IMG/VR virus record: IMGVR_UViG_3300035698_034402
Location: 1 to 64,000 of that record
Direction: 5' to 3' (one strand)
DNA: 64,000 nt
Origin: a virus
The translations under genes were made by a program, and so were the position numbers. Below are positions 7,655 through 9,340 of the stretch, in pieces (within the stretch, counting starts at the first letter, position 1; the number at the start of each line of letters is the position of its first letter). The notes under the pieces were generated by a model. The model made no database searches, was not told where the DNA came from, and worked only from the letters and a program-made list of their open reading frames with translations.

Positions 7655-9340
7655 ATGGCCCGTACGGCACTTGGCATTCCGAATCGACGACGGTTCGCAG
7701 AGATTCCTAATGCTCCCGGCGAATGGGAGTATGGGGTCCAGCTCCATAATGCCTTACGTGCCGGGAAACACTTCGACTTGCGGCTGGGCCGCGGCAAAGA
7801 TGCGCATTCCTGGGTTGTCCGCAAATGGCCTGAACCCGGTCAAAAAGCACTAGCGATACAGCAGCCCACTCATTCGGCTTCATATATAGGCTGGTCCGGA
7901 ACTATCCCTGCTGGTCAATATGGCGGCGGGGAGGTGAAGCTGCACGATCGCGGCAAAGTCCGGGTTGTCGAATCCGGGCCGAATAAGATCAAATTCGTCC
8001 GCTTCCGCGGTAAAGAAGCGGAAGAGTTCGTTTTGTTCAAGGCCAAAGGGCGTAATTGGCTGCTGGCTAACATGACTGGCAAGCATCCCGACGTCCCGCA
8101 GTGGAAACCGGCGTACAAGACGATGCCGTTTGGCCCGGAACTTTCCGGCCAAGAAGGATTCATGTCCGCAAAGGTCAATGGCGCCCATGGACTGGTGGTG
8201 TTGCAGGCGGGCAAGACTCCGCGGGTGTACAGCGTGCGCAAACCGGTGTCCGGCGGTCTGGTTGAATGGACTCACAAGTTTCCGGATCTGTGGAAGCATA
8301 AAGCTCCCCCAGGGGTTAACGCGGTCCTGCGGGCCGAGGTCTATCTGGCCGACAAGGACGGCACTCCTCGTCCGGTGAATGAGACTGCGGGAGTGCTCAA
8401 TTCCGGCATTGAGAAGGCCTTAGGCAAGCAGCTGGAAACCGGGCTCAGTTTGCAGATTATGCCCTTTGCGGTGCACACCGTCGGCGATCAAGCCCTGAGT
8501 TACGAAGACCAGGTTGCCAGGATCAATAACCTGTCCAAACAACTGCCGTTTCTGCGTCCGCCGGAGTTCGCTACGACCCCGGAGCAGAAGAAGCAGATGC
8601 TGGAGCGGGTGCAAACCGGCGATCCCGCACGTTATGACGGGGTAGTGATTTGGGGAGATCGTCCATCTAAGGCTAAAATCGAGACCGAGTTCGACGTGTA
8701 TCCTCGGGAAGTTTTCCCGGGCGAAGGAAAGCATTTAGGCCGTGCGGGGGGTTTCACTTTCGCGCGGGCGTCTGACGGACCCGTAGTAGGCAAGGTTGGC
8801 ACGGGTTTGTCCGACCAGTTCCGTGAGGAGCTGTGGGCGCAGCGGCGACGTTTGCTTGGCCGTGTTGCGGTAGTCGCGGCCGAACGGGAGACCCCGTCGG
8901 GAGCGTTGTATGCTCCGCGTTTTAAGAGCTGGCACTTGGACAAAGATCCCGGGGAGTGGGCTGAATCTATGGAAGCTGAACCGGTTCGTAACGCTGAGTT
9001 GTTCAAACGTGGTTTTCTCAGGAAGATAGCCGGGCTGGGGCTAATTCCTTCGGATTTCGAGGAGGCTATGGAGAAATCCGGCACCGTTCCGTTCTTGAGC
9101 GGCCTGGGCGCGGCGGGTAGTTGGGCCAAGGGCCTTGTTGCTTTGGGTTTAGAGGGCAGCAAGTTGGCTTTGGCGCTGACTGCGGGCCTACCTTTGTTAG
9201 GCGGCTCCGTTTTTGGCGCAGGGGCTCGGGCAGCGACGCATGCCGATGATCCGGACGTAGAAGAAGTTAAGACGCAGGAAATGACCTCGCTGTATCGGCA
9301 ATTGGCCCGTGACGTCAGGGAGCGATCTCAACATGGCTAA
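7655..9340 (+). CDS. LigD 3'-phosphoesterase + ATP-dependent DNA ligase (NTase + OB) + Gly-rich C-tail
   Basis: PE motifs QLH...HFDLRL, SWVV, H...Y, GTIP.GQYGGG.V...DRG; ligase motifs AKVNG, AEVY, DGVVI, KAK; OB motifs KVGTGLSD and PRF. Confidence 0.85.
   Translation: MARTALGIPNRRRFAEIPNAPGEWEYGVQLHNALRAGKHFDLRLGRGKDAHSWVVRKWPEPGQKALAIQQPTHSASYIGWSGTIPAGQYGGGEVKLHDRGKVRVVESGPNKIKFVRFRGKEAEEFVLFKAKGRNWLLANMTGKHPDVPQWKPAYKTMPFGPELSGQEGFMSAKVNGAHGLVVLQAGKTPRVYSVRKPVSGGLVEWTHKFPDLWKHKAPPGVNAVLRAEVYLADKDGTPRPVNETAGVLNSGIEKALGKQLETGLSLQIMPFAVHTVGDQALSYEDQVARINNLSKQLPFLRPPEFATTPEQKKQMLERVQTGDPARYDGVVIWGDRPSKAKIETEFDVYPREVFPGEGKHLGRAGGFTFARASDGPVVGKVGTGLSDQFREELWAQRRRLLGRVAVVAAERETPSGALYAPRFKSWHLDKDPGEWAESMEAEPVRNAELFKRGFLRKIAGLGLIPSDFEEAMEKSGTVPFLSGLGAAGSWAKGLVALGLEGSKLALALTAGLPLLGGSVFGAGARAATHADDPDVEEVKTQEMTSLYRQLARDVRERSQHG

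Follow-up and report, generated by a model that had tools for sequence, protein, structure and literature searches.

A phage gene joining a LigD-type phosphoesterase and a DNA-ligase-type domain to a small hydrophobic protein of the head-gene block

Three kinds of system relevant here are already known: end healing by LigD-type enzymes, minimal DNA ligases, and the polyvalent proteins of phages. Characterized 3′-phosphoesterases (PEs) of the LigD type are manganese-dependent, and in phage T4, a capsid-targeting sequence, a short address possibly cut by the prohead protease, loads internal proteins into the prohead. In the PE active site, two histidines and one aspartate bind Mn, and an arginine, a histidine, and a tyrosine bind the phosphate; in the archaeal enzyme CkoPE, alanine at His9, His15, Asp17, Arg19, or His51 nearly abolishes activity, and Y55A retains ~23% (PMC3082917). 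Polyvalent proteins of phages and conjugative elements combine several enzymes, are encoded beside portal or MuF genes, and are predicted to be packaged and injected; their repertoire includes 2H and InPase domains in fusions with portal or MuF proteins (Iyer, Burroughs, Anand, de Souza, and Aravind 2017; PMC5512222). Mycobacteriophages Omega and Corndog encode Ku and use the LigD of the host to circularize their genomes (Pitcher et al. 2006, cited in PMC12848934). Here, we describe a gene at positions 7655–9340 (+ strand) of a 64,000-nucleotide stretch of DNA from an uncultured large phage (hereafter “the window”; positions 1 to 64,000 of IMG/VR record IMGVR_UViG_3300035698_034402, which comprises 84,988 bases and is rated 42% complete). 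The longest frame in this interval is an open reading frame (ORF) of 561 amino acids (aa) with three parts: a PE, an ATP-dependent ligase core made of a nucleotidyltransferase and an OB domain, and a 118-aa tail, here called the carrier module.

We propose that the product of this gene is an accessory enzyme for cleaning and sealing DNA 3′ ends, tethered to a conserved protein of the head module, a link through which it would probably be packaged along with the virion RNA polymerase; we give this reading a probability of roughly 0.45. The fusion of the enzyme to a small hydrophobic protein that relatives make separately suggests that it travels in the virus particle, and its delivery with the virion is plausible. 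As the substrate, we favor DNA, either plain or with a terminal ribonucleotide.

Domains and catalytic residues of the PE-ligase

The LigD-type PE domain spans residues 27–138 (7733..8068, +). Pfam LigD_N (PF13298) matched residues 29–106 with an E-value of 2.7e−14 and 53.7 bits, above its cut-off of 31.1. The best PDB match in phmmer, over residues 27–138, was the archaeal PE 3p4h (E = 2.7e−17), followed by the archaeal 3p43 (E = 2.1e−11) and the Pseudomonas LigD PE (E = 1e−9). In the alignment, His31, His39, Asp41, Arg43, His73, and Tyr77 correspond to His9, His15, Asp17, Arg19, His51, and Tyr55 of CkoPE, and all six are invariant across an alignment of 99 homologs. An earlier reading made from the letters alone (the sequence-only reading) had recognized a LigD PE domain with its His/His/Asp/Arg and His/Tyr residues, and the Pfam match, the 3p4h alignment, and the invariance in the 99 sequences all agree with it.

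The nucleotidyltransferase (adenylation) domain covers approximately residues 160–335 (8132..8659, +), as placed by alignments, by a profile comparison with the Thermococcus DNA ligase 9dfa, and by Foldseek. It carries motif I as KVNG (codon of Lys173 at 8171–8173, +), motif Ia, motif III as LRAEVY, motif IIIa as PFAV, and motif IV as DGVVI. The OB-fold domain follows at approximately residues 338–432 (8666..8950, +); it begins with motif V (K339 and K341) and also contains PRFxxWHLDK, which resembles motif VI. The variant motifs that the sequence-only reading had listed around K173, in PFAV, and in DGVVI are therefore present, and its OB fold is borne out by a match to phrog_114 (“ATP-dependent DNA ligase”) on residues 339–433 (E = 1.2e−11), by a match to Pfam DNA_ligase_OB_2 (PF14743) at residues 355–425 that falls below the cut-off (E = 0.0021), and by the modelled fold described below. 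The OB region also matched 6rau/6rar (E = 5e−5).

The Pfam ligase profile PF01068 gave no match to this ligase half, which is too divergent for it. A profile built from eight ligase halves spanned both the nucleotidyltransferase and the OB domain of 9dfa (residues 242–538, E = 3.9e−9), with the motif I Lys, motif Ia (S-x-R...T), motifs III, IIIa, and IV, motif V (K-x-K), and the motif VI-like P-x-F-x-x-x-H-x-D-K in register, and all 33 of its PDB matches at E ≤ 0.01 were DNA ligases. An AlphaFold model from the single sequence reached a pLDDT of 33 and was replaced by one based on the alignment of 99 sequences, for which the mean pLDDT was 85.8, with values above 90 over residues 20–430, the OB range included. 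The Foldseek PDB matches listed for this model (ranks to 50, with gaps) were all ATP-dependent DNA ligases, with a best E-value of 3e−12; archaeal, T4, and Rhizobium phage ligases, Pmar-Lig, Lig E, the African swine fever virus enzyme, the LigD LIG domain, and human LIG1 were among them. We also considered a capping enzyme on account of the neighboring RNA polymerase genes and rejected it: neither capping enzymes nor Rnl-type ligases occurred among the Foldseek matches listed or among the 33 PDB profile matches. One relative (L023) gave a weak PF09414 match (E = 2.9e−4) beside a PF01068 match at 1.3e−8.

Across the 99 sequences, K173 and G329 are invariant, and K339, K341, the E/D-G of motif IV, and the H..K of the motif VI-like segment are at least 90% conserved. 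The family consensus of motif I is KIDGAH, with N, S, or D at the third position in the nearest clade, and many distant homologs combine KIDDAH with the loss of the motif III Glu. These departures, which in the present protein place Asn for Asp and His for Arg in motif I, together with the silence of PF01068, would fit a ligase half that serves as a nucleic-acid-binding scaffold for an active PE, or a protein that is structural as a whole. We consider this very unlikely, since the motif I Lys is invariant and the motif V Lys pair and motifs IV and VI are retained at the level just given, a degree of conservation that at 30–57% identity is not expected of a dead site. The sealing domain is of the DNA-ligase type and, judging from these motifs, probably active.

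The family search with the PE-ligase returned 151 matches, approximately 100 of which are PE+ligase proteins, mostly of 430–500 aa. Pfam recognized PF13298 in these members, in some of them together with PF01068 and PF14743, but PF04679 in none; the genuine LigD proteins, which ranked last in this search, do have PF04679. No polymerase domain was matched by Pfam in the 561-aa protein, and no LigD Prim-Pol (PF21686) was found in the 84,988-base record or in two complete relatives. Ku (PF02735) was likewise absent from the record, at its completeness of 42%, and from all five PE-ligase-carrying phage genomes of 95–100% completeness, in a profile search that was positive in the Bacillus subtilis control. 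The sequence-only reading had noted the lack of a polymerase domain and of Ku, and the scans of protein and record agree. PF01068 matched in none of three genomes; the same profile misses the ligase of the window itself, so this negative says nothing about divergent ligases. Some bacterial LigDs lack one domain, so the missing polymerase is not decisive by itself. A truncated LigD was nevertheless rejected as an explanation because the OB domain is of a different type, the PE resembles the stand-alone PEs of archaea more closely, and the family groups separately. On this sequence evidence, the PE-ligase is not a LigD.

All members of the family came from metagenomes or from contigs of uncultured viruses, the longest of 226 kb. 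When close relatives were sought with the single PE-ligase protein, the viral contigs yielded no locus, the metagenome contigs one 2-kb fragment, and the GTDB genomes only one unrelated PE match, in a metagenome-assembled genome of Lysobacterales. Two family members (P0080 and P0098) contain intein and LAGLIDADG domains inside the PE-ligase protein, and an intein signature lies within the SNF2 helicase fused to the PE-ligase in L014:9671–15295. Eight tail-less PE-ligases (P0006, P0007, P0008, P0010, P0012, P0020, P0021, and P0037) have an N-terminal extension with a doubled motif of the V-x-x-H-x-R...V-x-V-x-x-H-x-R type.

The carrier module and its place in the head block

The carrier module occupies residues 444–561 (8984..9337, +) and consists of an N-terminal amphipathic helix with RKIA, a Gly/Ala-rich hydrophobic segment, and a charged C-terminal helix. 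RKIA, EKSG, and the Gly-rich hydrophobic tail, all named in the sequence-only reading, are present. The hydrophobic segment (residues 493–524; 9131..9226, +) surrounds a conserved P...G...G and is a borderline transmembrane helix; its Kyte–Doolittle mean over 19 residues peaks at 1.7, in windows centered near residues 487–517. A search with residues 436–561 alone against 1.84 billion representatives gave 85 matches, of which 69 were free proteins of 88–175 aa and 16 were longer proteins (265–674 aa) that in every case carried the module at the C-terminus. The members share an amphipathic helix of the form F-K-x-G-F-L-x-K-x-A-x-x-G, the hydrophobic Gly/Ala stretch with P...G...G, and an acidic-then-basic C-terminal helix. 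Pfam and PHROGs hold no family for the module, and an ESM Atlas search with the tail returned nothing (best score, 0.76). The profile match at 8987–9346 is the single copy in the window's record.

Six full-length PE-ligases bearing the tail, 50–57% identical to the query, form one clade among the 99 sequences (FastTree support, 0.999). Because they form a single clade although they are so divergent, the fusion is old and has been kept by selection. The whole query was covered only by the four best homologs, P0005 keeps the tail after a 240-aa insert, and the fusion recurs in the fragment L067, where the two genes found downstream in the window come next as well. An artefact or a read-through as the origin of the tail was ruled out by the six full-length proteins in one clade plus the fragments L067 and P0121. 

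The same module is also joined to other proteins. P0141 is a homolog of the whole 2H protein encoded next to the PE-ligase in the window (41% identity, E = 5e−80); the alignment stops exactly at the end of the window protein, and the carrier module follows as a C-terminal fusion. Two further proteins (P0134 and P0169) are fusions of DUF5661 to the carrier. The module therefore occurs free in one relative, on the PE-ligase in the present clade, and on the 2H protein in another relative. Five loci have a free carrier gene within ~10 kb downstream of the PE-ligase, two of them near-duplicates.

The free state is best seen in L068/G001, a viral genome of 216.5 kb rated 100% complete, the portal and RNA polymerase of which are ~72% identical to those of the window. 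Its genes run in the order portal, homologs of the window genes 3801 and 4780, 2H, a 134-aa ORF, a free carrier of 106 aa, homologs of the window genes 9309 and 9785, and RNA polymerase; in other words, it has one free carrier gene, in the same slot upstream of the RNA polymerase. No PE-ligase was found anywhere in this complete genome by a type of search that did recover the PE-ligase in the window's own record. Because a complete relative so closely related in these genes lacks it, the PE-ligase is an accessory gene, which argues against an essential role such as circularization and for an accessory role related to conflict. Genome circularization as the main role, one of the functions suggested in the sequence-only reading, is thereby weakened. 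The free L068 gene has a GTG start preceded by GGAG repeats, and the residues around this start recur in the linker of the window protein. There, an in-frame internal ATG (Met439; 8969..8971, +) lies 12 nt after GGGGAG and five codons before the point that corresponds to the L068 start, and this second start might yield a free carrier protein from the fused gene.

The PE-ligase gene belongs to a tightly packed operon on one strand. The upstream neighbor encodes a 2H phosphoesterase with a hydrophobic C-terminal half (6334..7638, +; PF13563, E = 2.7e−10), and 16 nt separate the end of this gene from the ATG of the PE-ligase, the stop of which overlaps the ATG of the next gene at 9333. The two downstream genes (9333–9782 and 9785–11311; together 9333..11311, +) keep the same order after the carrier module in L067 and L068. 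The portal homolog (1764..3752, +) matches the “portal protein” gp204 of the cultured Salmonella phage Arash (E = 5e−57), is 72.5% identical to the L068 homolog, and lies 3.9 kb from the PE-ligase gene. Farther downstream are the genes of a phage multisubunit RNA polymerase (11578..21158, +), with β::β′-N at 11578–17019 and β′-C at 19311–21158, identified by Pfam and as homologs of Arash gp206 and gp216. These are followed by homologs of the head maturation protease (29050–30417, +; PHROGs; Arash gp222, E = 3e−42) and of the major capsid protein (32727–33665, +; PHROGs; Arash gp226, E = 6e−36). The portal, both polymerase genes, the protease, and the capsid gene are collinear with those of Arash, and from this shared order, we conclude that the PE-ligase gene does sit in the head block. 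The head-gene setting described in the sequence-only reading is borne out, with the portal upstream and the protease and capsid homologs downstream.

Two features of the neighboring genes are recorded here. The β::β′-N protein of the window has 1813 aa, and its 72%-identical homolog in L068 (L068:11969–16366) has 1465 aa. The two align in two blocks that meet near residue 355, which points to an insert of ~350 aa in the window protein (intein-like, starting C-F-D-A-D) that has no counterpart in L068. The ORF at 4780–5409, which matches four PHROGs of unknown function (E = 1e−16 to 1e−22), opens with a motif of the M-P-x-x-S-[RK]-[AK]-Q-x-R-x-M type. The opening resembles the N-terminus of the PE-ligase homolog P0009 and recurs in several proteins that end in the carrier (P0139, P0178, P0188, and P0203), at their start or, in P0203, mid-protein.

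In liquid chromatography–mass spectrometry of purified Arash particles, RNA polymerase gp206 gave 3516 spectra (rank first) and gp216 gave 1210 (fifth) among 116 proteins, and the helicase gp217 gave 1148 (PMC10585845). To examine how often the PE-ligase lies near such genes, we took 29 viral loci with a PE-ligase alignment of at least 400 aa and compared the genes within 10 kb with the window proteins by BLAST. The RNA polymerase was found in 9 loci, the portal in 3, and the protease in 4, and 12 loci had at least one of them; with phmmer, the RNA polymerase was near the PE-ligase in 10 of 34 loci. These counts include the near-duplicate pairs L011/L030, L020/L036, L024/L025, and L028/L031. 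In L010/G005, a complete genome of 224,270 bases with direct terminal repeats, a single 1436-aa ORF (7202–11512) joins the RNA polymerase β′-C (Rpb1 domain 5) to PE and ligase.

The hydrophobic character of the module suggests a different function, namely that it would anchor the PE-ligase at the inner membrane or at a replication or packaging site, for example for nick sealing before packaging, with the enzyme staying out of the particle and the head-block position reflecting late expression. This is consistent with the conserved P...G...G segment, with the Kyte–Doolittle values of the carrier family (median, 1.57; maximum, 1.9; at least 1.6 in 16 and at least 1.2 in 34 of 35 members), and with the hydrophobic Gly-rich stretches that neighboring genes also encode. 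However, the module keeps a fixed slot between the portal and RNA polymerase genes, and in all 16 fusions, it is the N-terminus of the module that is joined to the varied partners, which is the pattern that a carrier should show. In addition, the RNA polymerase subunit to which the PE-ligase is joined in L010 has an Arash homolog with a high spectral count in particles. We therefore regard a membrane anchor as fairly unlikely and packaging with the virion RNA polymerase as the preferred reading. The label of a cargo-type tail, given in the sequence-only reading, is supported in so far as the module is an independent, conserved small protein that is free in a complete relative and fused to 2H elsewhere and whose neighbors have RNA polymerase homologs abundant in Arash particles.

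Fusion partners, leader peptides, and the likely substrate

Twelve long relatives, L010 among them, were scanned with Pfam for fused domains, and relatives of 917–2977 aa add 2H, SNF2, InPase, and DUF5661. The longest, in L033, combines 2H-SAK, PE, ligase, and SNF2 in 2977 aa. SNF2 also accompanies PE and ligase, with an intein, in L014, and PE with a weak Zn-peptidase match in L012. A 2H domain also accompanies the PE in L018 (2H-SAK, PE, and InPase) and in L011 (a LigT-like 2H, PE, and ligase). PE and ligase are joined to DUF5661 in L026 and to a weak HAD_PNKP match in L028. A 1992-aa phage protein (L062:4721–10699) contains a LigD-type ligase (PF01068 and PF04679), mCpol, GGDEF, LigD Prim-Pol, sigma-70 region 2, and PE. 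Kinase (PF13671) and NUDIX fusions also occur in the PE-ligase family, with a P-loop kinase in P0010 and P0099.

The end-healing domains in these proteins point to “dirty” ends as the substrate, that is, to a 3′-phosphate and, where a kinase is fused, a 5′-OH. Such ends are typical of damage by RNases and not by restriction enzymes, and an Asn in motif I is found in some RNA ligases. Together with the adjacent 2H cyclic phosphodiesterase, and with the 5′ kinase of the relatives, the enzyme might thus reseal tRNA or mRNA cut by metal-independent ribonucleases of the host, in the way that T4 Pnkp and Rnl1 repair RNA against PrrC. The 2H gene adjoins the PE-ligase and is fused to it in 3 of the 12 long relatives (L011, L018, and L033), and the P-loop kinase fusions and the HAD_PNKP match in L028 point the same way. 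CkoPE prefers single-stranded substrates and resects ribonucleosides (PMC3258152), and two RNA ligases are listed among the proteins detected in Arash particles (PMC10585845). On the other hand, the sealing half matches only ATP-dependent DNA ligases with a C-terminal OB domain (among the Foldseek matches listed and the 33 profile matches), the DNA-ligase motifs Ia and VI are retained, and the fusions to the SNF2 double-stranded DNA translocase (L012, L014, L033, and P0079) and to LigD Prim-Pol (L062) point to DNA. Moreover, polyvalent proteins mix unrelated activities, so a 2H fusion need not mean a common pathway (PMC5512222). We consider RNA repair unlikely and DNA-end repair the better reading. 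The sequence-only reading had joined the enzyme and the adjacent 2H protein into an injected protection kit; the fusions in 3 of the 12 long relatives support the association of the two, and RNA repair or mere co-delivery would explain it equally well.

The proximity of the RNA polymerase genes raises the further possibility that the phage RNA polymerase extends DNA 3′ ends with ribonucleotides, which the PE would trim to one before the ligase seals the patch. This would fit the polymerase gene within 10 kb in 9 of 29 loci and the covalent β′-C::PE-ligase of L010, but it is based on co-location alone, which shared packaging explains equally, and 20 of the 29 loci lack a nearby RNA polymerase gene. 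We also know of no primer-extension role for such polymerases. In the bacterial system, LigD Pol prefers ribonucleoside triphosphates, PE trims ribonucleotide tracts, and LigD LIG prefers a nick with a 3′-ribonucleotide (PMC8656161). We regard polymerase-coupled patch repair as highly improbable.

Many members of the family begin with a peptide that may bear on packaging. Of the 99 homologs, 53 have at least 12 residues before the conserved G-I-P start, and 28 of these extensions contain K-[ILVM]-A; in 17 of the 53, no more than 8 residues separate the motif from the core, compared with ~2% in shuffles, the sequences being related and non-independent and the pattern having been picked after the data were viewed. 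A typical leader reads ...E-L-E-K-I-A-E-Y-A-P-G-I-P. The PE-ligase at 7655–9340 itself has no N-terminal leader, the window 2H protein begins with a similar peptide (...Y-I-D-K-L-A-A), and the first helix of the carrier module resembles the leader. In related loci, the leader pattern gave 15 matches, compared with 4 in one shuffle, and 7 of the 15 were in the first 40 residues; two of the 7 ORFs with such an N-terminal peptide are a PE-ligase ORF or adjoin one. By a hand sum over the window, K-[ILVMQ]-A occurs ~34 times in the head-region proteins (4780–32070), where 14 are expected from shuffles, and ~10 times, compared with 9, in the tail-region proteins (32118–64000), which show no enrichment. 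We treat the idea of an address peptide as a lead, not a result. In its broadest form, a modular cargo-loading system would use the small hydrophobic protein and the K-[ILVM]-A leader as carrier and address, with enzymes (PE-ligase, 2H, and DUF5661) hooked on by fusion and taken into the capsid beside the virion RNA polymerase, and would inject a Ku-independent clean-and-seal enzyme to mend the phage genome on entry; on the present sequences, this larger scheme is possible, though doubtful.

Proposed role and comparison with known systems

Taken together, the domains and the setting of the gene suggest a “heal-and-seal” enzyme that would work independently of Ku and without a polymerase. The PE would convert ends with a 3′-phosphate or a 3′-ribonucleotide tail to 3′-OH, and the minimal ATP-dependent DNA ligase, adenylated on Lys173, would then seal the break. 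In one phage clade, this accessory PE-ligase appears to have been joined in frame to the N-terminus of a small hydrophobic protein of the head block, probably a part of the particle or of its ejection machinery, and through this fusion, the enzyme would enter the capsid alongside the virion RNA polymerase. It would act on the phage genome at host entry and mend nicks or nuclease damage with “dirty” ends. We know of no phage for which injection of a DNA repair ligase has been demonstrated.

Several observations weigh against this proposal. Motif I is KVNGAH and not KxDGxR, and many homologs have Gly in place of the motif III Glu, so ligase activity is not assured. The nearly transmembrane hydrophobic segment is at least as easily reconciled with a membrane anchor as with capsid cargo. 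The 2H and kinase fusions point towards RNA ends, and the RNA alternative stays alive because restriction enzymes do not make “dirty” ends. The Arash genome contains neither the PE-ligase nor the carrier module, and tblastn over 50,697 deposited phage records found neither. No RNA polymerase, portal, or protease was found within 10 kb in 17 of the 29 PE-ligase loci by BLAST, the sensitivity of which is limited for divergent phages. Finally, the Arash particle preparation gave 116 of 272 proteins, and its authors caution that abundant enzymes may co-purify (PMC10585845).

An enzyme delivered with the genome would represent a form of counter-defence that repairs damage, unlike the blocking of nucleases or the degradation of host signals. 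It would also mean that end healing of the LigD type is possible in the absence of Ku and a polymerase, and the carrier module would lend itself to the loading of foreign proteins into large-phage capsids. Packaging aside, there remains a phage-only PE-ligase family of approximately 100 members that has repeatedly been joined to RNA polymerase, SNF2, 2H, and kinase domains. A phage family of PE plus minimal ligase without Ku or polymerase, its ties to the virion RNA polymerase block, and its fusion to a hydrophobic carrier appear to be undescribed in the literature searched: we found no paper that combines LigD, phosphoesterase, bacteriophage, and virion, LigD is not mentioned in the available text of PMC5512222 and PMC7824862, and “phage” is not mentioned in that of the LigD review PMC8656161.

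Among known systems, bacterial LigD, which acts with Ku in non-homologous end joining (PE-LIG-POL in Pseudomonas aeruginosa and POL-PE-LIG in Mycobacterium tuberculosis), is similar in having a PE with the same six residues and an ATP-dependent ligase in one chain, and the logic of cleaning the 3′ end and then sealing it is shared (PMC8656161). It differs in that the present protein has no archaeo-eukaryotic primase-type polymerase domain and no Ku was found with it, its OB fold is of the small OB_2 type (PF14743) and never PF04679, its PE is nearer to the archaeal stand-alone PEs (E = 2.7e−17) than to the Pseudomonas LigD PE (E = 1e−9), and the family is phage-borne, within a head-gene block. 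Those archaeal enzymes, CkoPE and MbaPE (PDB 3p4h and 3p43; PMC3082917), are the best sequence matches and share the minimal PE fold and identical catalytic residues; however, each consists of a single domain, lacks an attached ligase, and has no known partner. The minimal and phage-type ATP-dependent DNA ligases (T4, Rhizobium phage 9fzx, Prochlorococcus Pmar-Lig 6rar, Lig E 6gdr, and Chlorella virus) have the same architecture of nucleotidyltransferase and OB domains, the same motifs, and the same fold, whereas the present protein has KVNGAH as motif I, an N-terminal PE, and a C-terminal carrier, and this member is not detected by PF01068. The polyvalent proteins are comparable in that two enzymes and a carrier lie in one chain 3.9 kb after the portal and that relatives are found within giant multidomain proteins. 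In contrast, the available text of PMC5512222 does not mention LigD, uses “ligase” three times and for RNA ligases only, and describes neither the PE-ligase pair nor the small hydrophobic carrier.

Omega and Corndog likewise apply end joining of the non-homologous type to their own genomes, but they bring Ku and borrow LigD, whereas this phage brings a PE and a ligase and no Ku was found. The capsid-targeting sequence of T4 provides the closest parallel for the idea of an address or carrier that loads non-structural proteins; here, however, a whole 118-aa protein at the C-terminus would take that part, and relatives have a short N-terminal leader ending in K-[ILVM]-A.

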